Source of the DNA: Planktothricoides raciborskii GIHE-MW2
Lineage (GTDB): Bacteria > Cyanobacteriota > Cyanobacteriia > Cyanobacteriales > Laspinemataceae
Direction of reading: 5' to 3'
DNA length: 64,000 bases
NCBI RefSeq assembly: GCF_040564635.1
Contig: NZ_CP159837.1
Location: forward strand, 291,801 to 355,800
Position numbers and translations under genes: made by a program. Below are positions 2,275 to 62,061 of this stretch, in pieces. Position 1 is the stretch's first letter. Each line of letters starts with the position of its first letter. The notes beneath the pieces are model-generated. The model had not been told where the DNA came from, searched no databases, and was given only the letters and a program-made list of their open reading frames with translations.

Positions 2275-2516
2275 GGTTTCTCTCCTAGTCCCAAATTGTT
2301 GGAGTTTGATAACTTAAGTTGCGATGCCCCTGATTTTTCTCTGGCAAAAGTTATACTTATTGCTTCTAAATTCAGTATATTTTAATCTGCGTGCGGATGC
2401 AATCCAATTTGATGGCGATCCATTGCCATGATTGGTACACCAATTTTAAAATAAATGAAAATTATATAAAAATCAGATTTCTTTTATAATTCACGAAACT
2501 GTTAATAGTTAAACTA

Positions 2517-2546
2517 TTGACAAAAAAATTTTTTTTGTATATATTA
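2517..2546 (+). promoter_or_regulatory. near-consensus sigma70-type promoter (TTGACA, 15-17-nt spacer, TATATA/TATATT) reading into the GC-rich structured region
   Basis: ttgaca at 2517-2522 and tatata at 2538-2543, within AT-rich DNA. Confidence 0.3.
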
Positions 2547-2599
2547 ATCGAGAAAATTAATCTTGTTATTCAAAAACTATTATTTATATTCCAATACCT

Positions 2600-3050
2600 T
2601 CGCCATTTTCATGTAGAGCCTGCCCCCGCGAATGTGGGGGTTGGGTTGAGCGAGGGGAAACCCAACGGAGGAAAGAGGTTCTTAGGAAAGAGGTTCTTAG
2701 GAAAAATTTCAGAGTGGAGATTTCAATTTTCACCCTTATACGAAAATCCTAAGAACCTTTATTTTATATTCTCTATCCTGCGTTGGGTAACAGCCAAAGA
2801 ACCAACCTACTTTTCAAGGCAATGCATGATTTTGGCGAAGGTATTGATATTTAAGATAGATATTTACAGCCCTTGGCGATGTAATAAGGTACATTAAGCC
2901 AGCCCCCGCGCGGGCGGGGGATCCCCCCTAGCCCCCCTGAAAAAGGGGGGGACAAAGAAAGCCGATGGCGGGATCCGAAAGCTACGAAAGCCCCCACCTC
3001 CCCTTCAAAGGCGACGGGGTGGTGGGGGGCTAAAACGTACCTCATAATAT
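2600..3050 (+). other. GC-rich hairpin-dense non-coding segment (possible leader or ncRNA, or decayed repeat element)
   Basis: Several G/C-run inverted repeats: gcccccgcgcgggcggggg, cccccctg-aaaaa-ggggggg, gcccccacctcccc...ggggtggtggggggc. There is a tandem gaaagaggttcttag x2 with its complement cctaagaacc downstream. Only short ORFs with unconvincing, G/C-run-derived translations on either strand. Confidence 0.3.
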
Positions 3051-3058
3051 CGAAAAGT

Positions 3059-3067
3059 GCTGTATAA
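3059..3067 (+). promoter_or_regulatory. extended -10 element (TGTATAAT) upstream of the P450 gene
   Basis: tgtataat matches TGnTATAAT and lies about 60 nt before the ATG at 3126. Confidence 0.3.
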
Positions 3068-3125
3068 TATAACTAATAGGTTGAAAATATGAATAATCAA
3101 AAAACCTTTATTTTGAGCAAGGACT

Positions 3126-4436
3126 ATGAGAAAAGATTTACCTTTACCTCCCGGCAGTTCCGGTTTGCCTTTGATTGGGGAAACCCTTTCCTTTGTGTTT
3201 GATAAAAATTTTGCCGATAAGCGGATAAAAAAATATGGCAATATTTTCCGCACCAATATTTTGGGGCAGCCTACGGTGGTGATGTCCGGGACAGACGCGA
3301 ATCAATTTATTCTTTCTAGCCATTTTGACTATTTTTCTTGGCGGGAAGGTTGGCCGCCCAATTTTGGCGAATTGTTAGGAGAATCTCTGTTTTTGCAGGA
3401 GGGAGAAGAACACCGCAGGAATCGCAAATTACTGATGCCCGCATTTCATGGGCCGGCATTACAAAATTATTTTCAGACAATGGTGGAGATTTGCGATCGC
3501 TCCCTGGAAAAATGGTCAGAATTAGGAGAATTCACCTGGTTTCCTTTAATGAAACAGATGACATTTGCGATCGCCAGTATATTATTACTCGGAAGTGAAC
3601 CCGGTCAGGAAACTGAACGCTTATCAAAGCTTTTTACCCAACTCACCCAGGGTTTATTTGCCTTTCCCATTCCTCTCCCTTGGGCAACCTATCCTAAAGC
3701 CCTGAAAGCCAGAGATCAACTTTTAGCTCATATTGAAACCGCCATCCAAGATCGTCTGGAAAATCCCCGGAATGATGCATTAGGATTATTATTACAAAGT
3801 CGAGATGAAGAGGGCAATGCGCTGTCAGAAGCGGAAATTAAAGTCCAAGCTTTGTTAATGTTATTTGCCGGTCACGAAACCACCACTTCTATGTTAATTT
3901 CTCTAGCCATGAGTCTGGCACAATATCCAGATGTTTGGCAAAAAGCGCGGGCAGAACAAGAGGCCATATCCTCGGAAACCCTAACATTTGAACATCTCAA
4001 ACAAATGCCCTATCTGGGTCAAATCCTCAAAGAAATTGAACGACTTTATCCCCCAGTGGGGGGAGGCTTTCGCGGGGTGGTGAAGCCTTTTAAATTTCAA
4101 GGCTATCATGTACCCGCAGGCTGGAAAGTTCTGTATCATATGAAAGGAGCACATCAAGATAGTAACATTTATTCTCATCCAGAGAAATTCGATCCCGATC
4201 GCTTTAGTCCAGAAAGGAACGAGAACAAAAAAGTTGAGTATAGTTTAGTCGGTTTTGGTGGTGGCCCAAGAATTTGTTTGGGCATGGCTTTTGCCCAGAT
4301 GGAAATGAAAATATTTGCCGCCCGTTTACTGCAAAATTATCATTGGGAATTGTTGCCAAACCAAGACTTAACAATGGATCCCATTCCGACCCTTCACCCG
4401 CGTTCTGGTCTGAAAGTGAAACTCTGGAAACGTTAA
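3126..4436 (+). CDS. cytochrome P450 (CYP120-like)
   Basis: Heme-thiolate loop FGGGPRICLGMAFA, I-helix AGHETTTS and the ExxR/PERF region are present. Length is 436 aa. Confidence 0.9.
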   Translation: MRKDLPLPPGSSGLPLIGETLSFVFDKNFADKRIKKYGNIFRTNILGQPTVVMSGTDANQFILSSHFDYFSWREGWPPNFGELLGESLFLQEGEEHRRNRKLLMPAFHGPALQNYFQTMVEICDRSLEKWSELGEFTWFPLMKQMTFAIASILLLGSEPGQETERLSKLFTQLTQGLFAFPIPLPWATYPKALKARDQLLAHIETAIQDRLENPRNDALGLLLQSRDEEGNALSEAEIKVQALLMLFAGHETTTSMLISLAMSLAQYPDVWQKARAEQEAISSETLTFEHLKQMPYLGQILKEIERLYPPVGGGFRGVVKPFKFQGYHVPAGWKVLYHMKGAHQDSNIYSHPEKFDPDRFSPERNENKKVEYSLVGFGGGPRICLGMAFAQMEMKIFAARLLQNYHWELLPNQDLTMDPIPTLHPRSGLKVKLWKR

Positions 4437-4481
4437 TTTTTTATAGCCGCCCATGCTATTTTGAACCGCTTTTATTGCGAT

Positions 4482-4745
4482 CTAAAACTGTAGGTTTTTT
4501 TTTGCATTAAAATAGTTCCTGTTCGCGAGGGGGAATTCATCCCGATAGGACTCGAAAGCGGGGAAATCAGAGACTCCTTGATAAGACAAAATCGTCTCTG
4601 ACCATTGGGAAACTGAAGTCGATGGCGGTTGCATTTGATGGCGTAAAACTTGCAGAATCAATGTTGGCAGGGGAATATTAGATTGTGTCGCTTGACGGAT
4701 GAGGTCTTGTTCGAGGTCTGGCGGTAGGTCGATTGTAATTTGCAT
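4482..4745 (-). CDS. small hypothetical protein with an N-terminal ribbon-helix-helix-like segment
   Basis: MQITIDLPPDLEQDLIRQATQSNIPLPTLILQVL resembles CopG/RHH antitoxin N-termini. No partner gene is nearby. Confidence 0.3.
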   Translation of the reverse strand: MQITIDLPPDLEQDLIRQATQSNIPLPTLILQVLRHQMQPPSTSVSQWSETILSYQGVSDFPAFESYRDEFPLANRNYFNAKKNLQF

Positions 4746-5039
4746 CGGTAATTTCCCTCAATTGATCCGGTTTAGATATTTTATCACACCCCCACATCCC
4801 CGTCGCCTCCCACCGACCAACCCAGAAACCACCCAGAAACAGAGTTTCTGCCGTGACCTTTGCATCCTCATCCAAATCTGGTAGAGAAACCCGGTTTCTT
4901 AGACCCTTCTCGTTCCCTAGAGACCGACCCAGTGCGATCGCGGCCTATCGTTATTTTTTGTAAATCCTAAGATTCAATCTTAAATGTCGGTATAGAATAG
5001 ATGATAAATTTCAACTAAAACCCAGGAAAAAACTTCATT

Positions 5040-5618
5040 ATGGCAGTTTCACTGAAAAAAGGACAACGAGTATCCCTGGACAAGGTAGCTCCAGGACTTT
5101 CCGAAGCATTTATTGGTCTTGGATGGGATGTTAAATCTACGGACACCGGCCATGATTTTGATCTGGATGCCTCTGTATTTCTACTAGGTGCTGATGAAAA
5201 ATTAATTTCCGACAACCACTTTATTTTTTACAATAACCTCACCAGTCCGGATCCGGATAAGTCAGTTCAAAATACAGGAGATAATCTGACTGGTGTAGGA
5301 GAAGGAGATGATGAAGTTATCAAAGTTAATCTGAAAAAAGTACCGGCAAATGTTCAAAAAATTATCGTTGCCGTAACCATCTACGAAGCCGAAGAACGAC
5401 GGCAAAACTTTGGTCAAGTTGAAAATGCTTTTGTGCGGATAGTCGATGCCCAAACCAAGCAAGAAGCCATCCGCTATGACTTGACGGAAGACTACTCTGT
5501 GGAAACAGCCTTAGTGATGGCAGAACTTTACCGTAAAGATGGGGAGTGGCGACTAAACGCCGTTGGTTCTGGCTATCAAGGCGGCTTAAAAGCTTTGCTC
5601 GATCGCTATAGCAATTAG
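5040..5618 (+). CDS. terD: TerD-family stress protein
   Basis: Motifs GQRVSLDK, GLGWD, DFDLDASVFLL, GDNLTGVGEGDDEVI, FGQVENAFVRIVD and a C-terminal GEW. Confidence 0.9.
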   Translation: MAVSLKKGQRVSLDKVAPGLSEAFIGLGWDVKSTDTGHDFDLDASVFLLGADEKLISDNHFIFYNNLTSPDPDKSVQNTGDNLTGVGEGDDEVIKVNLKKVPANVQKIIVAVTIYEAEERRQNFGQVENAFVRIVDAQTKQEAIRYDLTEDYSVETALVMAELYRKDGEWRLNAVGSGYQGGLKALLDRYSN

Positions 5619-7158: not shown

Positions 7159-7330
7159 GTGATATCGGGGTATTTTTTCACTATAAAAAAGCGAGCCAGG
7201 GTTAGCATTTTTTGTAGCAATAATTTTTTTTAAGGTTGCTATTAGCTGATGTGATTTATCTATAAATACGTGAAGGAATATATTCAGGATAGCCAAAAAG
7301 CCATGAATACCGTGAAGTAAGAAAAACGGA

Positions 7331-7361
7331 AAAACCCCGGTTTGAAGAAACCGGGGTTTTT
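7331..7361. terminator. rho-independent-like hairpin aaaaccccggtttgaagaaaccggggttttt serving convergent genes
   Basis: Perfect 10-bp GC stem flanked by A and T runs. It lies between the stops at 7158 (+) and 7390 (-). A 26-bp AT palindrome follows at 7369-7395. Confidence 0.6.
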
Positions 7362-7389
7362 CCCACCAATTAATTAATCGATTAATTAA

Positions 7390-8748: not shown

Positions 8749-8968
8749 GATGAATGCGATTTTTTGTAATCTTTTGAGTGAGTGAAAGGAGGAACATCAA
8801 CCATCAGACCCAATAGCGGTTGAAGCCGATCGGGGAGTCGTGAAGGTGGGATTACAGCCAATTGATTAAAGCAGCAACCCTTGTGAGTTTATACTTATCT
8901 GAACATACCCTGTTTTTGAAGCTGTCGCTACATCAGGGGGGTAATGAGGATCGCCCCATGAGTCGATC

Positions 8969-9023: not shown

Positions 9024-9527
9024 GCGGATGGCCATTTGTCAGGGAAATATTTACCGGCGGAGTTTTCGCCCATCGTAGGGGCGCGATCTTTCCGGCGGTT
9101 CACTTAATATTTCCATTAATAACCTATATGCCGGAAAGATCGCGCCCTAGGCTGAAAATTCATGCGATCGCGATGCAGTACCGTGGGGCGATCCCGAATC
9201 TTGATGGGAAATACAGTTGTGAGAGTGGTAAATCCGCAAAAATAAATCTTAAATTTTTCTGACACAAAAAAATCTGCATCCTTCACTGGGTTTTTGCAGT
9301 GGTAAGTCCGATTATGTCTTGATTTGGCGGAGCAGTCCCCGGGTAATCTCAGTGATACTGGCAATTTATCATAGACAAGAAGGTTTTCATACTGGCGTTG
9401 CTCCCCCGCGCCGCCCTTACAAATACGAGATAATCCCTGATTTTTTTCTCTATGTTTGAGATTCTAAACTGTTAAAAGTTTATCCTGTTTATCGTGAAAA
9501 AAAATTATAAATGCAAGTTAGAATAGG

Positions 9528-10176: not shown

Positions 10177-11559
10177 TTAACTATTAATTAATCGCTGCGC
10201 TTCCCGAATTCCTGATAAGTAAGCCCCATGTACCGTGGAGGGATAGTCACGGGAGGTTGCTTCTCCGGCAAATAAGAGGCGCTGGTTCACGGGTTCAGCG
10301 AGGAGATCGCGATCGCCACTATCCCCACCCACGGGAATATAGGAATAAGACCCGAAAGCAAAGGGATCTTGAGTCCATCGAGTCATCATCACCATTTCCG
10401 GTTCAGGAATGGGTTGGCCATAATTCTGCCGCAAAACCCGCATAATGCGATCGCTAATTTGCGTTTCTGATAACTGTTCGATCTGGCGGGCAAAACTACC
10501 GCCAGTAAATGCCATTAATGCCGGTTTTTGACTGTAGAGTGACCAATTTAAAAATTCACCAAAATCCGCTTTTCCTTCAGATAGACAACCAAATCCGTGA
10601 TATTCTTCTGGCCAAAATTCCTGGGGAAATTTTAACACTACCTTATTTAAAACTCCCATACTTAGGCGATCTATTGCCCCTTGTTTGTTGGCAGGCAATG
10701 GGGGAGAAAACTTAATATTTCCAGATTTTAAGACTCCCAAAGGTAAGGTGACGATCGCCGCATCAGCGGTAAAATTGCCTCGATCAGTGGTGACGAATAC
10801 CCCTGAATTGCTGGTGGTAATTTCCATCACTGTTTGTTGCCGCTGAATTTCCAGATTTTTCGCTAATCCGTTAATAATTTGGTCATATCCTTGGGGAAAA
10901 ATATAATCATCGCCGTCAAAACTTTCTCCCTCATCAAACCACCAAGCGGAAAGATTTTCTAAGTCCGCACCCCGGTCAATAATCAGTTCAGAATTCAACC
11001 ACCATTGGACTAACTGAGATTCTTGGGGTTTCAGGGTTTGGGATTTTAAAATCTGTTGAATTGTGGCTGCCAGGGAGAGGTCTTTTTCTGAATTTTCCGC
11101 TAAGGCTTCCGCCCGTTCGATAATTTTTTCATAGATTTCATAACTACTATCAATATCCTCATCGCTAATTAATTTGCCATTGCTGCCGTACAAGAGAATA
11201 TTATCGAAATCTGTGGGCTTAATAGCAATATTCCATTCTCGCGCTAAATTGCCAATAGGATTATCGGTAATCCCATGAATCCAAGACGCCCCCAAATCTA
11301 CGGGAAAGCCCAGGGTGCGATCGGTATAAATGCGCCCCCCAATGCGATCGCGCCCTTCCAAAACCGTCACTTGAAACCCATTTTGCTGAAGTTCTTGGGC
11401 TGCCGCTAATCCGGCAATTCCCGCCCCAATCACCAACACTTTTTGCTGTTGAGATTGTACCCGATTTTCCGCACAAGCCCAAGACAGACCGACGGTACTA
11501 GCGAATAAACTGACCTGAAGGAAACGACGACGGTTAAGCAACGATTTAATTGAGGACAT
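10177..11559 (-). CDS. Tat-exported flavin-containing amine oxidase
   Basis: Twin-arginine leader RRRFLQVSLFASTVGLSWA and a GxGxxG FAD fold (VLVIGAGIAGLAAAQEL). The amine oxidase family C-terminal segment is present. Confidence 0.8.
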   Translation of the reverse strand: MSSIKSLLNRRRFLQVSLFASTVGLSWACAENRVQSQQQKVLVIGAGIAGLAAAQELQQNGFQVTVLEGRDRIGGRIYTDRTLGFPVDLGASWIHGITDNPIGNLAREWNIAIKPTDFDNILLYGSNGKLISDEDIDSSYEIYEKIIERAEALAENSEKDLSLAATIQQILKSQTLKPQESQLVQWWLNSELIIDRGADLENLSAWWFDEGESFDGDDYIFPQGYDQIINGLAKNLEIQRQQTVMEITTSNSGVFVTTDRGNFTADAAIVTLPLGVLKSGNIKFSPPLPANKQGAIDRLSMGVLNKVVLKFPQEFWPEEYHGFGCLSEGKADFGEFLNWSLYSQKPALMAFTGGSFARQIEQLSETQISDRIMRVLRQNYGQPIPEPEMVMMTRWTQDPFAFGSYSYIPVGGDSGDRDLLAEPVNQRLLFAGEATSRDYPSTVHGAYLSGIREAQRLINS

Positions 11560-24092: not shown

Positions 24093-24863
24093 CGAACTAA
24101 TTTATAGTTTTTATTTGATATGAAACTCAAGAAAATAAACCATTGATAACCCTCTTATTTCAAGAAAACTGTTATCAAACTTTTAAGCTAAAATATTTAA
24201 AAATTTATTTTTTAAATATCAATTAGCTTGGTTAATTCAATCTGATTTTACTCTGACAGTAAGCCGTCAGAAGGGCAACGGTCAGCGACCAATGTAGGGG
24301 CTGAAAGCTGATTCCTGAAGCATCCAAGCTGATAGCTGATTTTTGATACCTGAATGCTGATCTCTGGCATACAGCAGTATAGTAGACAACAAAGTAGGGG
24401 CGAGTTTGAAACCTGCCCCTACCCGACGTTGATCCCCCCAAACCCCCGATAAGCGCTCCAATCGGCTTTTTAGCCTGGGAAAGCAAGAAGTCTAATTAGT
24501 TTTTTAGGCGATATAGCATCAAGGGGATGTTTCCGCAAGTCTTTGATTATGTTTTGGTAAGGGAATGTTAATTAACAGTGATTTTAACCGGGCGATCGAC
24601 AGATCCATTGAATATAATGAAATATAATGAAAAAATTATCTGCTGCCGGACTTTTTCAAAAAGTTTCCCAACGCTCTGGAGGTGTTTGCCGTTTTACCTG
24701 TACGGGTGGCTTCCGTGCTAAAAAATACAGACAAAAAGTTCAGTAAAGCGCAGAAACGTCTCAAATTTTCTGGCTTTTTTGGACTGGTAAGCTTTTTGGC
24801 TTGAATCTGACTCCCGAAACAAAAAACCTGAGCTAGTCAAAACTTAGCTAAAAACCACCAATC

Positions 24864-26023: not shown

Positions 26024-27016
26024 ATGAAGCTTTTGATTGGTTTGTGTTACGACCTGAAGGAAGACTATCTTAAAGCAGGTTTCAGTGCGATCGAGGTGAT
26101 GGAATTTGACGATGAAGAAACGATCATTGGTCTGGAAGATGCTTTAAGCCATTTGGGTCATAATGTTGAACGGATCGGCAATGGCAGAGAACTAGCGCGG
26201 AGGCTAGTTGCAGGCGATCGCTGGGATTTGATTTTCAATCTGGCCGAAGGGGTTTGGGGTCGTTCCCGTGAAGCGCAAGTCCCCGCAGTCTGTGAATTAT
26301 TTAATCAACCTTATACATTCTCGGATCCCCTGACTTGTGCCCTGGCCTTGGATAAGGCTTTGGCCAAGCGGGTAGTGCGCGATCGCGGTTTGCCCACCCC
26401 AGAATTTGAAATAGTGAATACCCCCGAAGAGGCAAGCACATTATCCTTACCCCTGCCCCTGTTCCTCAAACCCTTGGCCGAGGGCAGTTCCAAAGGTGTC
26501 ACCAGCCATTCTTTCATCAACGACCAAGAAGCGTTAGTCCCAGCCTGCGAAGAATTGCTGGCACAATTTCACCAGCCGGTACTCGTAGAAACTTTTCTCC
26601 CCGGCAGGGAAGTCACTGTGGGTATTGTCGGCAATGGCAGCACTGCGGGGGTGCTGGCTGTCATGGAAGTCATCTTTACTGACAAAGCCGACGCGGTAGG
26701 ATATACCGCCCTGAATAAAGGCGAATATCTAGAACGGGTATCTTATCGTCTCGTCACTGATGAAGAACCAGTGGCAGCACAGGCCAACCAACTGGCTTTA
26801 AATGTCTACCATGCGCTGGGTTGCCGGGACACCGCCCGCGTTGATTTGCGCTGTGATGCCAGAGGGGTTTGGCATTTTCTAGAGGTTAATCCATTGCCAG
26901 GGCTAAACCATATCCGTTCAGATTTGCCAATTATGGCGGATCTTGCTGGTCTGTCTTACCCGCAATTGATTGGCAAGATTGTTGACAGTGCATGGCAACG
27001 GTGGCAAGAGCATTAA
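26024..27016 (+). CDS. ATP-grasp ligase of the D-Ala-D-Ala ligase family
   Basis: Ddl-like N-domain and ATP-grasp fold (FLKPLAEGSSKGV, EVTVGIVGNG). The start is set at MKLLIG, 3 nt after the kamA stop; a longer in-frame extension from 25979 is possible. Confidence 0.75.
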   Translation: MKLLIGLCYDLKEDYLKAGFSAIEVMEFDDEETIIGLEDALSHLGHNVERIGNGRELARRLVAGDRWDLIFNLAEGVWGRSREAQVPAVCELFNQPYTFSDPLTCALALDKALAKRVVRDRGLPTPEFEIVNTPEEASTLSLPLPLFLKPLAEGSSKGVTSHSFINDQEALVPACEELLAQFHQPVLVETFLPGREVTVGIVGNGSTAGVLAVMEVIFTDKADAVGYTALNKGEYLERVSYRLVTDEEPVAAQANQLALNVYHALGCRDTARVDLRCDARGVWHFLEVNPLPGLNHIRSDLPIMADLAGLSYPQLIGKIVDSAWQRWQEH

Positions 27017-27508
27017 CCATAAATTTAGTAGCGCGTCTTAGTAGCGCGTCCAGACTAAAATTATGGGTCGTAGTGGCAATTCACGAGTGGCAATTCACGA
27101 ATTGCCACTACACTCACAGAATTGATCAATGCCCCCTAAATAATAGACAATTCTGGCAGAATTCTCGCTCATCTCCCCGAAGATCGGGGGGTTGGGAGGA
27201 TCGATCCAGAATTTTGCCAGAATTGTCTAATAAATCTGTAAAATTTTGTAACGAGTTGCCAATTTGGCAACATAATCTCCTGATTCGAGGGTTTCATAGA
27301 CTGAGAAAGACGTACTTATTTCACAATCCAGGTCAAGGCTTGGTTTTCAGGGCATTAAAAACCGGGCTGTTCATTGAGTTTTGGCTCATCAGGTCAGAAA
27401 AAATGAGCAAAAACCCGGTTTTTCTGACTACGGAAGTCGCAGGGCAGTGCAGCGAACTGTTGCATCATCTCAAGATTGCTATCTATATAGATTGAAACAG
27501 GTGAAATT

Positions 27509-41362: not shown

Positions 41363-41984
41363 ACCAATTGTCAGCGATCGCTATACCCCAGTGGAATATC
41401 ACCAGTTTTCCCAGCCCAAAAATCTCCGTATAGCGATGAAAATTGCCGGGATACTTTCTTGGCCATTAGTATTACCTTTAGCCTGGTTATCTCGAAAATC
41501 GGATTTTATCTTTCGCACGGTTTCTGAATTATTAGCAATTGTCCCTTATTTATTCGGGGTAATTATCCGATATGAGTTCTACCGCTGGACTTTAACCTGG
41601 TGTGGGAAAAATGTGGCGATCGGCTTTGGCACAATATTGACTTATCGCAATATTAAAATCGGCAGCAATGTCAATATTGGCAACCATATTACGATTCATT
41701 ATTGCGATATTGGGTCTTATGTTTTGATTGCCGACGGTTGCCAACTTTTGAGTGGTTCCCGCTATCACAATTTCGATCGCACCGACATTCCCATCGCCTT
41801 ACAAGGTGGCCAACTACGGCGAATTCAAATTGGCGATGACTGCTGGATCGGGGCCAATGCAGTGGTGATGAACGATATCGGTCAAGGGAGTGTGGTTGGG
41901 GCGGGGGCGGTTGTCACCAAGGCCGTAGAACCTTATACCGTTGTAGCGGGAAATCCGGCAAAACCAATCAGGAGTCGTTTATGA
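41349..41984 (+). CDS. membrane-anchored hexapeptide-repeat acyltransferase (WcaF-like)
   Basis: N-terminal TM segments followed by left-handed-helix hexads (IGSNVNIGNHITI ... IGANAVVM ... VVGAGAVV). Confidence 0.75.
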   Translation: MKLVEPIVSDRYTPVEYHQFSQPKNLRIAMKIAGILSWPLVLPLAWLSRKSDFIFRTVSELLAIVPYLFGVIIRYEFYRWTLTWCGKNVAIGFGTILTYRNIKIGSNVNIGNHITIHYCDIGSYVLIADGCQLLSGSRYHNFDRTDIPIALQGGQLRRIQIGDDCWIGANAVVMNDIGQGSVVGAGAVVTKAVEPYTVVAGNPAKPIRSRL

Positions 41985-42994
41985 ATCCCATGAATCAAAT
42001 CCAAGCCTCAACCGAGGGTAGGGTGGGCAAAATTTTGCCCACCCTACGGATAGCGATCGCCTGTATTCTCAGCACGATCCTCGGCTGTGCTTCCAAAGCC
42101 AACATTTCCCCTCCCTTTGAAGCGGGGGCAAAGGGGTATTCCCCAACCCCGAAATCGACTAACGACTTTCCTGACTATTCTCGTACCCCGGTGCTATTTG
42201 TCCACGGTTCCGGCTTAAGTTCAAGCACATGGCAGCCCATGATCAAACATCTGCAAGAAATTGGTTATCCATCGGCATATCTTTACGCCGTGGAGATCCA
42301 GCCCAATGATGGGGCAAACGATCGCGCCGCCGAAACCTTCATTGCCCCTGCGGTGGAGTCGATGTTGGCCAAAGCCCAGGCAGCCGCCAGAGATGCCGCC
42401 AAACAAAAATCTAACGTCCCAAAAAATATCGAACCGATACCCGTGAAGGTGGATATCGTAGCGCACAGTATGGGGGCGGTAAGCAGTCGCTGGTACATCG
42501 CCAAACTGCATCCAGAACGGGTACGCACTTGGATTTCCCTTGCCGGGGCTAATCATGGCACCAATGCCCTCTGCGGTTATTCCGGAGCAGGGAATCAACA
42601 AATGTGTCCAGCCTTTGCCACTTCTGCGGAGGACAGTCCCTTGCAGGTGGCACTCAATGGCACCCCCAGCGCCCCGATTGATGAAACTCCCTTCGGACTG
42701 GGAGTTGATTCCCCAGAAGTCAAAACCATTCCCCCAGACACAGACCGAGAGATTTTATATCTCTCCGTGCGAATTGAACCCGATGGTTGGATTAAACCAG
42801 AAAATAGTGCCGTAATTGATGGGGCTGGAGGACTGCCCATCCCCATCCCTGCGGGAGTCCCGGTGCAAGAAACCAGTCCCGGCAACTACTTATTTCAAGG
42901 TCGCGTCGGCCACGATCCCCTGCCCCAAGACCCGGATCTAATTCGTCTGGTAGCCAGTATGCTTAGTGTCCGCGACGGACAGGAGAGGCGTTAA
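41981..42994 (+). CDS. lipoprotein lipase/esterase (alpha/beta hydrolase, Lipase_2-like)
   Basis: Lipobox ILGCAS, nucleophile elbow AHSMGA, and PVLFVHGSG. A 30-bp perfect palindrome lies in the signal-peptide coding region. Confidence 0.7.
   Translation: MNPMNQIQASTEGRVGKILPTLRIAIACILSTILGCASKANISPPFEAGAKGYSPTPKSTNDFPDYSRTPVLFVHGSGLSSSTWQPMIKHLQEIGYPSAYLYAVEIQPNDGANDRAAETFIAPAVESMLAKAQAAARDAAKQKSNVPKNIEPIPVKVDIVAHSMGAVSSRWYIAKLHPERVRTWISLAGANHGTNALCGYSGAGNQQMCPAFATSAEDSPLQVALNGTPSAPIDETPFGLGVDSPEVKTIPPDTDREILYLSVRIEPDGWIKPENSAVIDGAGGLPIPIPAGVPVQETSPGNYLFQGRVGHDPLPQDPDLIRLVASMLSVRDGQERR
42018..42047. repeat. 30-bp perfect palindrome gtagggtgggcaaaattttgcccaccctac, in frame within a CDS (identical copy at 47762-47791)
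   Basis: Exact self-complementarity, and exact identity to the intergenic copy at 47762-47791. Confidence 0.9.
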
Positions 42995-43713
42995 TGAGTA
43001 TCTCTTACCAACTTGTTCCCTTTGATCGAAACACCCCTGCACCCGTGCAAGTTCTCGCTCGACTGCATCAAGAGCTAATCCCCAGTAGCCCAATTGTCTT
43101 ATTGGGTAAGGGATTTATGGAGCAATTTTACTATCATATATTGCCCCGCGAGGGTTTAATTTGTGGTGCCGTGGCCTATATCGACGGTCAACCCGCCGGA
43201 TTTATCGTCGCCACACCAGACTCAGCCCGGTTTATGAGAATTGGCCTCCGACGCCATTGGTGGCGATTAATCTGGATCATTGGCACTTCGGTGCTGCGGG
43301 AACCTAAGCGACTGGCGGCGATTTGGGAAGCATGGCAAATTATGAGGAGTAGGGGTCAATGGCCATTGACCCCTACTGGTGAAGCAGAAGCACTGGAGGG
43401 AGAACTGCTTTCTTTTGGGGTACTGCCTGCTTACCGAAATCCAAAATTTATTAGACAATCTGGTTTACAAATTTCCCAGGATCTTTTCAACCGGGCTGTA
43501 AGCCAGATTCAAGAGGCAGGAATTTGCCAAATTCGAGCGATCGTTGACGCGGACAATACTCCCGCCAAACTGTTTTATCACGGATTGGGATGGCATCTCG
43601 ATCGCACCCAAGTCCCTGGTTGGCGACTTCCCAGTGTGGATTTTGTCTGGCGAAACACGGCAAAAGCAGATCCGGCGCAACCAAGCTTTCAAGCTTTAAA
43701 CAAGGGGAACTGA
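42994..43713 (+). CDS. GNAT-like acyltransferase-fold protein (carries an in-frame palindromic insertion)
   Basis: FGVLPAYRNPKF ... AIVDADNTPAKLFYHGLGW resembles the GNAT core. The palindrome at 43349-43376 is translated as RGQWPLTP. Confidence 0.5.
   Translation: MSISYQLVPFDRNTPAPVQVLARLHQELIPSSPIVLLGKGFMEQFYYHILPREGLICGAVAYIDGQPAGFIVATPDSARFMRIGLRRHWWRLIWIIGTSVLREPKRLAAIWEAWQIMRSRGQWPLTPTGEAEALEGELLSFGVLPAYRNPKFIRQSGLQISQDLFNRAVSQIQEAGICQIRAIVDADNTPAKLFYHGLGWHLDRTQVPGWRLPSVDFVWRNTAKADPAQPSFQALNKGN
43349..43376. repeat. 28-bp perfect palindrome gtaggggtcaatggccattgacccctac, in frame within a CDS (near-identical copy at 48743-48770)
   Basis: Exact self-complementarity. The copy in the intergenic region at 48.7 kb is preceded by a heptamer array. 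Confidence 0.9.
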
Positions 43714-44855: not shown

Positions 44856-45857
44856 ATGAACAAAAATAAAAATAAGCAACAAAATAACAAACCCTACGCC
44901 AGCTTATCCCTAGACCTGGATAACAAATGGTCATATATGAAAACTCACGGCGATCGCGGTTGGGAAACTTTCCCCTCCTACTTGGATATTGTTGTGCCTC
45001 GGTTCCTGGAATTTCTCAAAGCCAGAAATCAGACCATTACTGTCTTTATTGTCGGTCAAGATGCGGCATTAGAAAAAAACCACCAAGCCCTAAAAGCGAT
45101 CGCCGATGCAGGCCATGAAATTGGCAATCATTCCTTTAATCACGAACCGTGGTTACATCTTTATTCCGAGGCAGAAATTGAACAAGAAATTGTCATAGCC
45201 CAACAGCAGATTAAGCAAGTCACGGGCAAACGTCCCATTGGATTTCGCGGCCCTGGTTTCAGTATTTCCCAAAACACTTTACAGGTTTTGAAAAGACAAG
45301 GCTATGAATATGATGCCTCAACTTTCCCCACTTTTCTCGGCCCGCTTGCCCGGGCTTATTATTTCCTCACCACCAAATTAGACCCGGAAGAACAACGCAA
45401 ACGCAAAGCATTATTTGGCAGTCTCGCCGAAGGATTTCGACCCTTAAAACCCTATCATTGGCATCTGGATGCCGGGGAAATTGTGGAAATTCCTGTAACT
45501 ACCATGCCCATTTTTAAAGTGCCGATTCATGTCAGCTATATTCTCTATCTCAGTCAATTTTCAACGGGGTTAGCCTTACTTTATTTTCGGATAGCCATGT
45601 TGTTATGCCGCTTAACCGGAGTGCAACCGTCTTTATTGCTTCATCCTTTGGATTTTCTTGGTTATGATGATGCCCCAGAGTTGGCATTTTTCCCGGCGAT
45701 GAAACTGCCCTCGGCAAAGAAAATAGAAATCCTCAGTCAAGTGCTTAATTTAATGTCCGATCGCTTCACAATTGTGACGATGCAGCAGTATGCTCGCGAA
45801 GTATCGCAAAAAGCGAATCTGCCCCTGGTGCAGCCAAATTTTCAACATAATTGTTGA
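44856..45857 (+). CDS. polysaccharide deacetylase (NodB homology domain)
   Basis: LSLDLD (TFDD-like motif) and GNHSFNHEPW (HSxxH). The start is chosen at MNKNK; an in-frame extension to 44745 would overlap the upstream gene by 65 bp. Confidence 0.8.
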   Translation: MNKNKNKQQNNKPYASLSLDLDNKWSYMKTHGDRGWETFPSYLDIVVPRFLEFLKARNQTITVFIVGQDAALEKNHQALKAIADAGHEIGNHSFNHEPWLHLYSEAEIEQEIVIAQQQIKQVTGKRPIGFRGPGFSISQNTLQVLKRQGYEYDASTFPTFLGPLARAYYFLTTKLDPEEQRKRKALFGSLAEGFRPLKPYHWHLDAGEIVEIPVTTMPIFKVPIHVSYILYLSQFSTGLALLYFRIAMLLCRLTGVQPSLLLHPLDFLGYDDAPELAFFPAMKLPSAKKIEILSQVLNLMSDRFTIVTMQQYAREVSQKANLPLVQPNFQHNC

Positions 45858-45951
45858 TTGTTGATTGTTGATTGTTGATTGTTGATTGTTGTTTGTTGTT
45901 TGTTGTTTGTTCAGCAACCACCAACCACCAAGCACCAACCACCAACCACCA
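45851..45951. repeat. STRR-like heptamer array (ttgttga)n that switches to an (accaacc)n array
   Basis: Direct read. The TGA stop of the deacetylase is part of the first repeat. Confidence 0.85.
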
Positions 45952-46029
45952 AAAAAATAATCAGCGGATGTCCCCCTATTTTCAATTACCAAGGGATATC
46001 CGCTGTAAAAAGATTCTCGGAAAGCTAGA

Positions 46030-47267: not shown

Positions 47268-47395
47268 TTATTGGGTAGGGATTCTTTCGTTGTTAGTTGT
47301 TAGTTATTGGTTGTTGCTTGTTAGTTGTTCGTGGTCGAATTTTCAGAACTAATAACTAACAACTAATAACCAATAACAATAGACTTGTTACTTTC
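47245..47395. repeat. imperfect inverted pair of (ttgttag/ttattgg)n heptamer arrays
   Basis: ttgttagttattgg ... array followed by its approximate reverse complement aactaataactaacaactaataaccaataacaa. Confidence 0.8.
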
Positions 47396-47689
47396 CCAGG
47401 CTAAAAAGCCTATAAGGGTTTTAATGGTGGGGGTTATCAATCCATTATTTTGCAAAAGCTTCAATAATTTCTTATTCAGCTTACCGATTTTCCAAAAGTC
47501 TCAACATGAAATAAAATAGCAGATCGCACATCATTGAGATCCTCTTGATATGTATCCCCTTGACCGACTACAACTCCCTTGATACCTAAAGGATAGGCAA
47601 CATAACCATCAGGGTGTTTTTCTACAATAATTTTGCTATTTTTCATCGTTTTTTCTATTAAAAAAACAACGAAATTGACTGGAATTGTA

Positions 47690-47845
47690 TTTAGTTGGTT
47701 GTTGTTTGTTAATTGTTGGTTGTTAATTGTTTTTTGTTGTTTGTTCCAGATTATTCCATTGGTAGGGTGGGCAAAATTTTGCCCACCCTACTAATAACGA
47801 ACAACCAACAACAACCAACAACCAACAACCAACAACCAACAACAA
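47690..47845. repeat. composite element: GT-rich heptamer array, then the 30-bp palindrome (47762-47791), then an AC-rich (caaccaa)n array
   Basis: Direct read. The arms are approximate reverse complements, so the whole element could form a hairpin of about 150 nt. Confidence 0.85.
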
Positions 47846-48655: not shown

Positions 48656-48835
48656 AGTATCCTCACAATTACCGTTTATGGCAATTGTACGAAAATTTCG
48701 CTCGCTGTTACAAATACAAGGTTATTTCTGGTTTGTTTGTTGTTTGTTGTTTGTAGGGGTCAATGGCCATTGACCCCTAAATTAAACCCTACATTGACCC
48801 TAGAACAGAAAAATTTAATTTGGGCAAGTCATCGA

Positions 48836-50383: not shown

Positions 50384-50396
50384 AGTTAGTGGTTAG

Positions 50397-50571
50397 TAGG
50401 GTGCGTTAGGCGCTAATTCTATTCATATAAAAACCGTTAATTTTCAAAATAGCGCCGTAACGCACCATCTTTATTTAGCGTAGGTTGGGTTCAGTAACGG
50501 GTAGGGTGCGTTAGTCGCTAACTTAACTGATATAAAAACCGTTAACTTTTAAAATAGCGACGTAACGCACC
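50397..50571. repeat. two tandem copies of a ~70-bp element, each an imperfect hairpin (ggtgcgttaggcgcta ... tagcgccgtaacgcacc)
   Basis: Direct read. The copies differ at about 8 positions. They lie between permease paralogs B and C. Confidence 0.8.
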
Positions 50572-59103: not shown

Positions 59104-59173
59104 AGAAACCGGGTTTCTGTCAAAATATCTTCGCCACCTAGAAGATATTTCACAGAAACCCGGTTTCTTTTTC
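59104..59173. terminator. bidirectional terminator-like inverted repeat between glgB and cyanoP
   Basis: agaaaccgggtttctg ... cagaaacccggtttcttttt, with an inner aaatatcttc/gaagatattt palindrome. Confidence 0.5.
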
Positions 59174-61422: not shown

Positions 61423-62061
61423 TTGACGGTTTGTAAATAATATCAGGGCTATCTGAAAAGCGATCGCTATCCGATTCAGAAAGTAGTCAACCCAAATAGC
61501 CCAGAAACCGGGTTTCGGTTTTGAATATCAGCAGTTATCTGTGGAATGCTTTCAAAGAAACCCGGTTTATTGCTTGGGGTAGAGAAATAAGCTGCCAACC
61601 AACCGCTATCCGATTCAGAAAATAGTCAACCTATCCGCTGCCAACCCCTATCCGCTGCCAATCAGGTATATATATGGGTTATATATATGGGCGCATACTA
61701 TTCCCATTATAAAGTCTTACGATGATTTTATTATAAATTAATTTTGGAGAACTTGTCAATAGTTTTTTCGGTAAATTTTTGGTTAAATTTGATTAAAAAT
61801 CGATAAAATTTTAAATAAACCCAATTTATCAGCTAAAGAAACTATTTTTTGAACCAAAGCAGCGTAATATCCCAGCCAGCTTGCAACTACCAGGAGATCG
61901 CATCAAAAAAATCTGAAAATTCAGAACAAGCAAAAAATGCGAATCGCTATTAAGGGAGACAAATCGCTACTATAAACGTATTTACAAATGGGGATAAATC
62001 ATGGAAAACATCCCCTTTGCTTAATCTGCCAATAGCCTCTAGCGTCAAACAATCATCACTT

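Follow-up and report, generated by a model that had tools for sequence, protein, structure and literature searches.

How do perfect palindromes of 28-30 nucleotides (nt) come to stand in frame inside two adjacent protein-coding genes, with a second copy of each lying between genes further downstream? The question is raised by a 64,000-nt stretch of the genome of the filamentous cyanobacterium Planktothricoides raciborskii GIHE-MW2 (contig NZ_CP159837.1, positions 291,801 to 355,800 of the forward strand), referred to here at its full length as the window, in which two such sequences, palindromes A and B, lie within a lipase gene and a GNAT-like acetyltransferase gene respectively. Comparison with related genomes indicates that both genic palindromes are secondary insertions that preserved the reading frame, and A and B are dispersed, almost always intergenic sequences present in several cyanobacterial orders. 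The explanation that we favor, with a probability of roughly 0.55, is that they are tiny non-coding dispersed repeats of cyanobacteria belonging to, or lying close to, the GTAG repetitive extragenic palindromes (REPs) and the small dispersed repeats (SDRs), and that they are copied in trans by a REP-associated tyrosine transposase (RAYT) or by conversion from existing copies.

Two palindromes in neighboring genes

Palindrome A is the 30-nt sequence GTAGGGTGGGCAAAATTTTGCCCACCCTAC, which is exactly self-complementary and occurs without a mismatch at 42018-42047 and at 47762-47791, both as the original prediction had described; no match with three or fewer mismatches appeared in 100 dinucleotide-preserving shuffles. 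Palindrome B (GTAGGGGTCAATGGCCATTGACCCCTAC, 28 nt) is found exactly at its predicted position of 43349-43376, where self-complementarity extends by one base on each side to give a 30-nt palindrome (43348-43377). The second copy of B had been placed at 48743-48770 and described as identical, neither of which held: it lies at 48753-48780 and matches at 27 of 28 bases, the last base being A and not C so that it ends in ...CCCTAA, and its perfect palindrome is limited to 48754-48779. Palindrome B is likewise without matches in the shuffles, and the chance expectation for either sequence is none. All four copies fall within 6.8 kb of the 64-kb window. Neither palindrome has a loop, and the 5' GTAG is paired with a 3' CTAC, so that GTAG is read on both strands. 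The predicted RNA folds have energies of -24.4 kcal/mol (A) and -20.5 kcal/mol (B). Both occur singly and not as the hairpin-forming REP doublets known as REPINs, and a half-site does not form a hairpin by itself. Neither palindrome is followed by a T-run, and they are therefore not intrinsic terminators.

The gene that carries palindrome A (41981-42994, plus strand) encodes a class-2 lipase, an alpha-beta hydrolase lipoprotein that is 100% identical to a protein of Planktothricoides sp. SR001, and the gene that carries palindrome B (42994-43713, plus strand) encodes a GNAT-like acetyltransferase with a borderline match to Pfam family PF00583. Both belong to a tightly packed operon whose neighboring genes encode an AMP-binding enzyme, a hexapeptide transferase, an LPG-synthase-like membrane protein and a polysaccharide deacetylase. 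Translation of the lipase starts at an ATG (41981) that shares an ATGA with the upstream stop codon and is preceded by GGAG, and palindrome A begins 37 nt past this start codon; because the ATG is conserved in relatives with an empty site, the palindrome truly lies within the coding region. By exact match and translation, it is read in frame as (G)RVGKILPTL(R), apparently within a signal-peptide N-region, the peptide ending in a lipobox-like ILGC, and palindrome B is read in frame as (S)RGQWPLTP(T). The earlier claim that both host genes keep their reading frames is thus correct. The frame relative to the element is the same in both genes (xGT AGG G..), and by our own reading of the sequences two of the three frames of palindrome A and one of the three frames of palindrome B are free of stops.

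Both host genes remain intact and under purifying selection, with ratios of nonsynonymous to synonymous substitution rates (dN/dS) of 0.20 for the lipase gene, against the related locus L008, and of 0.26-0.35 for the GNAT gene among insert-bearing lineages, the overall range for the two genes being 0.20-0.36. In the AlphaFold (AF2) model of the GNAT-like protein, which has a mean predicted local distance difference test score (pLDDT) of 88.8, residues 120-128 run from the end of a helix (104-121) into a coil (122-135), and the block 121-130 has a mean pLDDT of 57, the lowest within the folded part of the model. The model thus places the palindrome B insert in a low-confidence surface loop.

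Syntenic DNA of the relatives, whose loci are given here as L numbers, was compared pairwise over 2.4 kb, and yielded an identity-based tree of the form (((window, L003 97.7%), L008 94.9%), L001/L002 92.5%), (L028, L030 85.7%). The GNAT genes of the window, L003, L008 and L050 all contain palindrome B, as a C12 variant in the three relatives; it is missing from L001, L002, L028, L030 and all of the 60+ farther orthologs in a 67-sequence alignment. The net gain at this site is 18 nt (six codons), which implies either the replacement of about 10 nt of host sequence or a subsequent indel that brought the gene back into frame; variability of the surrounding loop precludes reconstruction of the junctions. 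The sequence AGTAGC, a possible GTAG target that predated the insertion, is found at the GNAT site in L028 and L030, and is absent from the nearest empty-site relative, L001. Palindrome A is present in the lipase genes of the window, L008, L050 and L051 and in the orthologs P0122, P0124 and P0125. The lipase N-terminus is short and the site empty in L028 and L030, relative to which the window is 39 nt longer. In L001, L002 and P0123 there is a different, 65-nt hairpin element at ~10 nt or less from the palindrome A site, and this too is read in frame. It has the form AGAAACCGGGTTTCT - ~35 nt of variable, often self-complementary spacer - AGAAACCCGGTTTCT; the lipase insert in L001 is at 5009-5073, and the family has intergenic copies in the window at 4835-4899, 59104-59168 and 61503-61570, together with a single unit at 7328-7363.

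In the ortholog alignments, proteins whose genes are without the palindrome are also without the corresponding residues, and the prediction that these are insertions is sustained on the very comparison that it had proposed as decisive. The insertions are dated between lineages that differ by ~5-8% in their DNA. Part of the description as a mobile palindromic element has to be modified, in that A and B are indeed dispersed and multi-copy, but the genic copies are not clean additions of 28 and 30 nt, the net gains being 18 and 39 nt.

Two further observations concern the lipase site. The possibility that the insert represents a 39-40-nt unit copied together with its intergenic heptamer flank (93% identity over 40 nt) was considered and rejected, because the shared GCGA is part of a site of the highly iterated palindrome HIP1 that is also present in L001, which lacks palindrome A. 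In one relative only (P0122/L050), the lipase gene has a 24-nt in-frame insert, GTCGGAAAAAAATGCCCCTTTCGG, at ~3440-3465 of L050, that is read as VGKKCPFR; it is not a GTAG palindrome.

Dispersal, heptamer arrays and the GTAG head

The palindrome A scan used one genome per species and a query consisting of one arm and the center, and found the arm intact in 24 genome stretches, 13 of them in a single Planktothricoides-like metagenome-assembled genome (MAG; S07.Bin090) and the others in Nostoc species, a Nostocaceae MAG, Moorena, Prochloron and Laspinema; a half-site match in Polynucleobacter is single and chance-like. Palindrome B was found by a metagenome scan in 17 contigs and in varied contexts. 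Among the copies found other than the lipase and GNAT ones and their orthologs, only two are in a long open frame, each close to the 5' end of the frame and probably ahead of the true start. A variant of palindrome A with T at position 23, which forms a G-T wobble on one strand, is present at three unrelated S07.Bin090 loci, and this recurrence argues for copying and against independent mutation. Palindrome arms are also found in duplicate and, in Moorena and at other loci, with 34-36 nt of unrelated sequence between them, and a compensatory change is seen in palindrome B with either T12:A17 or C12:G17 (L018), although such cases are few overall. No consistent target-site duplications are seen around more than 40 copies of A and B. 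A full-text literature search with the palindrome sequences gave nothing relevant.

The intergenic copies in the window are associated with heptamer arrays, but not in the same way. Intergenic palindrome A (47762-47791) lies directly 3' of a minus-strand TPR gene, at the tip of a long imperfect hairpin formed by inverted arrays, with GTTGTTn repeats to its left (47694-47745, plus strand) and CAACAAC repeats to its right (47796-47845, plus strand), both identified with Tandem Repeats Finder (TRF) and the latter also from the fold. The 144-nt composite of the palindrome and both arrays is predicted to form a single long hairpin of -62.6 kcal/mol (z = -10). Intergenic palindrome B (48753-48780) lies between a minus-strand 515-aa gene and the TPR gene, and is part of a plus-strand composite at 48731-48802 defined by TRF, by the sequence and by the L001 alignment; a TTGTTTG array (48731-48754) is present on its left side only, and on the other side its right arm is partially repeated in tandem (48768-48802). 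The original prediction that intergenic palindrome A is situated between heptamer arrays is therefore right. Orthologous copies of intergenic A in L001, L003 and L019 are decayed, with 1-4 mismatches, while intergenic B has an orthologous copy in L001 and an expanded copy in L019. Other small hairpins occupy the same heptamer arrays in related genomes.

Palindromes A and B have in common the 5' GTAG(G) head that is mirrored by the 3' CTAC, and the window contains at least five further GTAG-headed hairpins whose stems are unrelated to those of A and B. GTAG ranks first among the 256 tetranucleotides in being followed, within 0-2 nt downstream, by a perfect stem of at least 9 bp, with 13 of its 281 occurrences (4.6%) followed by such a stem, compared with 0.58% overall. 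The further hairpins, all given on the plus strand, include one at 9075-9150 in which GTAG is followed by the 18-bp stem GGGCGCGATCTTTCCGGC and a 33-nt loop, ending in CCCTAG; an imperfect intergenic hairpin at 24394-24422 (GTAGGGGC...GCCCCTAC); and an intergenic hairpin at 27070-27111 (GTAGTGGCAATTCACG...CGAATTGCCACTAC) with a duplicated left arm. An open reading frame (ORF) at 26992-27495 was considered as a coding host for a GTAG palindrome, but its translation looks non-coding and the copy is counted as intergenic. A canonical, one-sided GTAG long REP lies at 50396-50466 (GTAGGGTGCGTTAGGCGCTA ... TAGCGCCGTAACGCACC), and a second, tandem one at 50501-50571 differs from it by a compensatory change of G:C to T:A; the two are 105 nt apart and have the form GTAGGGTGCGTTAG.CGCTA ... 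TAGCG.CGTAACGCACC.

Several other features were seen in these intergenic regions. An inverted heptamer pair at 45850-45952 (ATTGTTG x9, then CAACCAC x5) lacks a palindrome at its center in the window; the equivalent array in L001 (~8880-8960) contains two copies of a 25-nt hairpin insert, GCCCTTCGGCTTCGCGAGCGGGCAA. The motif GGTAGGGATTCTT is found inside heptamer arrays at 47274-47286 of the window and at 10382-10394 and 11034-11046 of L001, its placement in L001 differing from that in the window, L003, L008 and L019. In the metagenome contig L046, a (GGGTGTA)n array at ~2420-2477 leads directly into a copy of palindrome B at its GTAGGGG head, and the overlap of the array unit with GTAGGG is a hint that slippage at the element end gives rise to some arrays. 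Beside intergenic B, L019 (S07.Bin090) has ~2.6 kb of extra DNA (2442-5025, flanked by the equivalents of window 48547 and 48727) that encodes a ParA-like ATPase and three small proteins. A repeat of ~35-45 nt (gacttgtt.ctttcccaggctaaaaagcc.ata) is present in intergenic DNA at 47385-47430 and, on the opposite strand, at 24461-24494, one copy adjoining the imperfect GTAG hairpin at 24394. A 52-codon ORF on the minus strand (47497-47652) lies between two heptamer-array structures and is kept in both L001 and L003, with no match to Pfam at E <= 0.01.

Copying in trans, local conversion and other readings

The favored explanation, in which A and B are mobile repeats of the REP or SDR kind, has the following as its most probable series of events. 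A RAYT-type HUH/Y1 tyrosine transposase, encoded by the host and acting in trans, would use the hairpin in its single-stranded state as the source of copies; alternatively, existing copies would serve as donors for conversion. Most new copies would land in intergenic DNA. Once the lineage had separated from that of L001, each of the two families would have placed one copy in adjacent genes of an operon for lipid or envelope modification. These genic copies would have survived both because they are read in the stop-free frame common to the two palindromes (xGT AGG G..) and because the sites, a lipoprotein signal-peptide N-region and a surface loop, are tolerant ones.

The transposase, the single-strand mechanism and any effect of the mRNA hairpins on expression are inferred, as is RAYT-type mobilization of A and B. 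Searches employed the Escherichia coli RayT (confirmed against PDB 4ER8) and a Kovacikia RAYT as queries. Through E. coli RayT, cyanobacterial RAYT genes were found on plasmids of Gloeocapsa (PCC 7428) and Kovacikia (minuta), flanked by GTAGGATGCGTTA... REP hairpins that are very close to the GTAGGGTGCGTTA... elements of the window (50396 and 50501). The Kovacikia protein retrieved 2703 cyanobacterial relatives, and the type is widespread in cyanobacteria; Planktothricoides is not among the names of the best 120 of these 2703 matches, which is uninformative either way.

A number of points weigh against this explanation. Neither a RAYT gene, by tblastn, nor any other transposase gene was found in the 64 kb of the window and the 357 kb of related loci. 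Exact 28-30-nt sequences shared by distant cyanobacterial orders are unusual for selfish REPs, which are mostly lineage-specific. The GTAG of A and B is paired and double-ended, in contrast to the unpaired tag at one end of the described GTAG REPs. The net gains of 18 and 39 nt differ from the 28 and 30 nt expected of simple additions, with junctions that are not reconstructable, and the presence of four copies within 6.8 kb hints at local copying or conversion over random transposition.

This last point bears on the first of the alternatives. The intergenic copies are the older ones, since L001 has them but not the genic copies, and this together with the clustering in 6.8 kb makes local copying a live alternative to transposition, albeit one that we think unlikely. 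No transposase would be required, as the genic copies would have been templated by the intergenic ones 5.4-5.7 kb downstream, through replication template switching or gene conversion with microhomology at the ends, and ongoing conversion would keep the copies perfect. Under uniform placement, the clustering of four copies in 6.8 of 64 kb has p ~0.005, a rough and post hoc value; the net gains imply that some host bases were replaced, and the lack of target-site duplications is also as expected. There are also signs of homogenization at three positions. Position 8 of intergenic A (47762) is G in the window, completing the palindrome, and A in L003, L019 and L001; position 12 of the GNAT copy of B is T in the window and C in L003, L008 and L050, changing Arg to Trp; and the base preceding the GNAT copy is A in the window and G in the same three relatives, changing Gly to Ser, both of the latter with better self-complementarity. 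The tree makes all three window states derived, so that each of these window-specific substitutions raised self-complementarity, a pattern suggestive either of selection acting on the hairpin or of conversion with perfect copies as donors. The signal consists of three sites only, and strain recombination could mimic such changes. Local copying nonetheless leaves unexplained both the occurrence of the same sequences at many unrelated loci in several cyanobacterial orders and the GTAG head common to unrelated stems, and the flanks of donor and recipient are without convincing homology. A more elaborate proposal, which we consider doubtful, is that the double-headed GTAG...CTAC palindromes are a distinct REP-like kind, actively homogenized and seeded locally from donors 5-6 kb away, with hairpin-directed conversion or insertion at hot spots overriding protein constraint. 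The three derived substitutions are relevant here, as is the independent presence, in sister lineages, of two unrelated hairpin elements in the same ~10-nt stretch of the DNA that encodes the lipase signal peptide.

The palindromes might also represent two abutted terminal inverted repeats of a DDE-type transposon or miniature inverted-repeat transposable element (MITE), moved by an insertion sequence (IS) transposase. L001 has a 247-nt MITE-like insertion at ~10505-10750 (window ~47427), absent from the window and L003, with 16-nt terminal inverted repeats (AATCTTGTAGGGGTTT / AAACCCCTACAAGATT) that contain GTAGGGG, a flanking direct repeat (GGTTTTAAGGG), and an interior hairpin with a 20-bp stem (GTAGGGGCGAAGCATTCCCG...CGGGAATGCTTCGCCCCTAC), and the palindrome A arms spaced 34-36 nt apart in Moorena and elsewhere can be seen in the same light. 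However, the 28-30-nt copies are without target-site duplications, no full-length transposase-bearing element with such ends was seen in the 357 kb, and the arms past GTAGGG(G) differ by family, for which a short recognition tag provides a better fit; we regard this origin as improbable. The MITE-like behavior proposed in the original prediction is not upheld for similar reasons, as elements of 28-30 nt with neither separate terminal inverted repeats nor target-site duplications are better described as REP/SDR-like. A functional role as cis-elements, either as a protein-binding site or as an RNA stabilizer or attenuator hairpin kept by selection, with the genic copies regulating the operon, would account for identical 30-nt sequences in distant cyanobacteria, the location of intergenic copies directly 3' of genes, the strong predicted hairpins, the recurrent T23 variant with its G-T wobble on one strand, and window changes that restore pairing despite an amino-acid cost. 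It is less easily reconciled with the 1-4 mismatches in the orthologous intergenic A copies of L019, L003 and L001, with related genomes that are without the genic copies or have another element at the lipase site, and with the missing T-run and hence the exclusion of intrinsic terminators. We consider it very unlikely as the primary explanation, although it is compatible with a mobile origin and not opposed to it. Chance or HIP1-like compositional noise, or the retention of ancestral residues, is almost certainly not the explanation: the genome is rich in HIP1 (GCGATCGC), with one site 5 nt after the lipase copy, but the shuffles gave zero matches, the palindromes are present or absent among orthologs, and the ancestral-residue version is refuted by the ortholog alignments described above. 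The alternative of HIP-like noise, which the original prediction had itself raised, can thus be dismissed.

Relationship to known repeat families

Palindromes A and B provide a clean, datable case in which tiny palindromic selfish DNA has entered coding sequence and been retained, and they extend GTAG-headed elements of the REP/SDR type to a Planktothricoides-type filamentous cyanobacterium, with the same 28-30-nt sequences common to several cyanobacterial orders. There are consequences for annotation, as lineage-specific peptide segments and strong mRNA hairpins of this origin could be mistaken for functional motifs. The most interesting leads are the apparent repair toward perfection, which if directional and true genome-wide bears on the homogeneity of REP-like families, and the double use of the lipase site, by hairpin elements unrelated to each other.

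The SDRs of the Nostocaceae, reportedly described by Elhai et al. in 2008 (Genome Res 18:1484; cited in PMC5861425 and PMC4390886), are said to be hairpin-forming dispersed repeats of 21-27 nt that often lie in heptamer arrays or mini-transposons, to be present or absent between close relatives, and to include different elements nested or swapped within arrays. Intergenic A and B are similar in that they lie in or beside heptamer arrays where other hairpins are swapped in close relatives, but at 28-30 nt they are longer and are in an Oscillatoriales-type genome, the comparison being one of description. Because palindrome A is present in several Nostoc genomes, it may overlap a described SDR or GTAG family. 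SDRs were reported as not found outside the Nostocaceae (PMC5861425).

The most extensive similarities are to the GTAG REPs and their RAYT (TnpA-REP) transposases (Di Nocera et al. 2013, PMC3733652; Bertels and Rainey 2011, PMC3116915; Quentin et al. 2018, PMC6006769). What defines the GTAG REP superfamily in sequence is a GC-rich stem-loop preceded on its 5' side by a conserved GTAG, each genome having many families of stems; it has members in cyanobacteria (GTAG-12, -15 and -16) and has been reported, in several species, within genes and in frame (PMC3733652). The cyanobacterial RAYT subclasses 2.4, 2.7 and 2.8 are associated with GT[AG]G REPs, and REPs inserted in coding sequence are described (PMC6006769). 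GTAG REPs and A/B have in common GC-rich stem-loops of 20-40 nt with a 5' GTAG, the presence of several stem families per genome that are mostly extragenic and often 3' of genes, compensatory stem variants, and occasional in-frame insertion within genes. They differ in that A and B have the tag within the stem, are perfect, loop-less palindromes, occur singly, and are shared across orders. Nor are A and B REPINs, in which two inverted REPs form the long hairpin that is the copied unit, as they are single units.

Similarities to other small elements are more limited. MITEs such as the cyanobacterial Nezha are likewise small, non-autonomous and hairpin-forming, but they measure 70-300 nt and have distinct terminal repeats of 15-30 nt as well as target-site duplications, both of which A and B lack. 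HIP1 is also an over-represented palindrome of the same genomes, with one copy 5 nt past the lipase insert as noted above; however, it is an 8-mer maintained everywhere, coding sequence included, without insertion, whereas A and B are discrete and polymorphic for presence or absence. The Rickettsia palindromic elements (RPEs), in the passage of PMC3733652 that cites them, are inserted in frame within ORFs encoding functional proteins. As with A and B, these are palindromic selfish DNAs that are in frame, translated and tolerated at surface or terminal positions, although RPEs are ~100-150 nt long, Rickettsia-specific and unrelated in sequence. Because in-frame REP-like inserts are already documented in other bacteria, the insertion of A and B into the lipase and GNAT genes is an event of a known kind, like those of REPs or Rickettsia palindromic elements, and not a new system.

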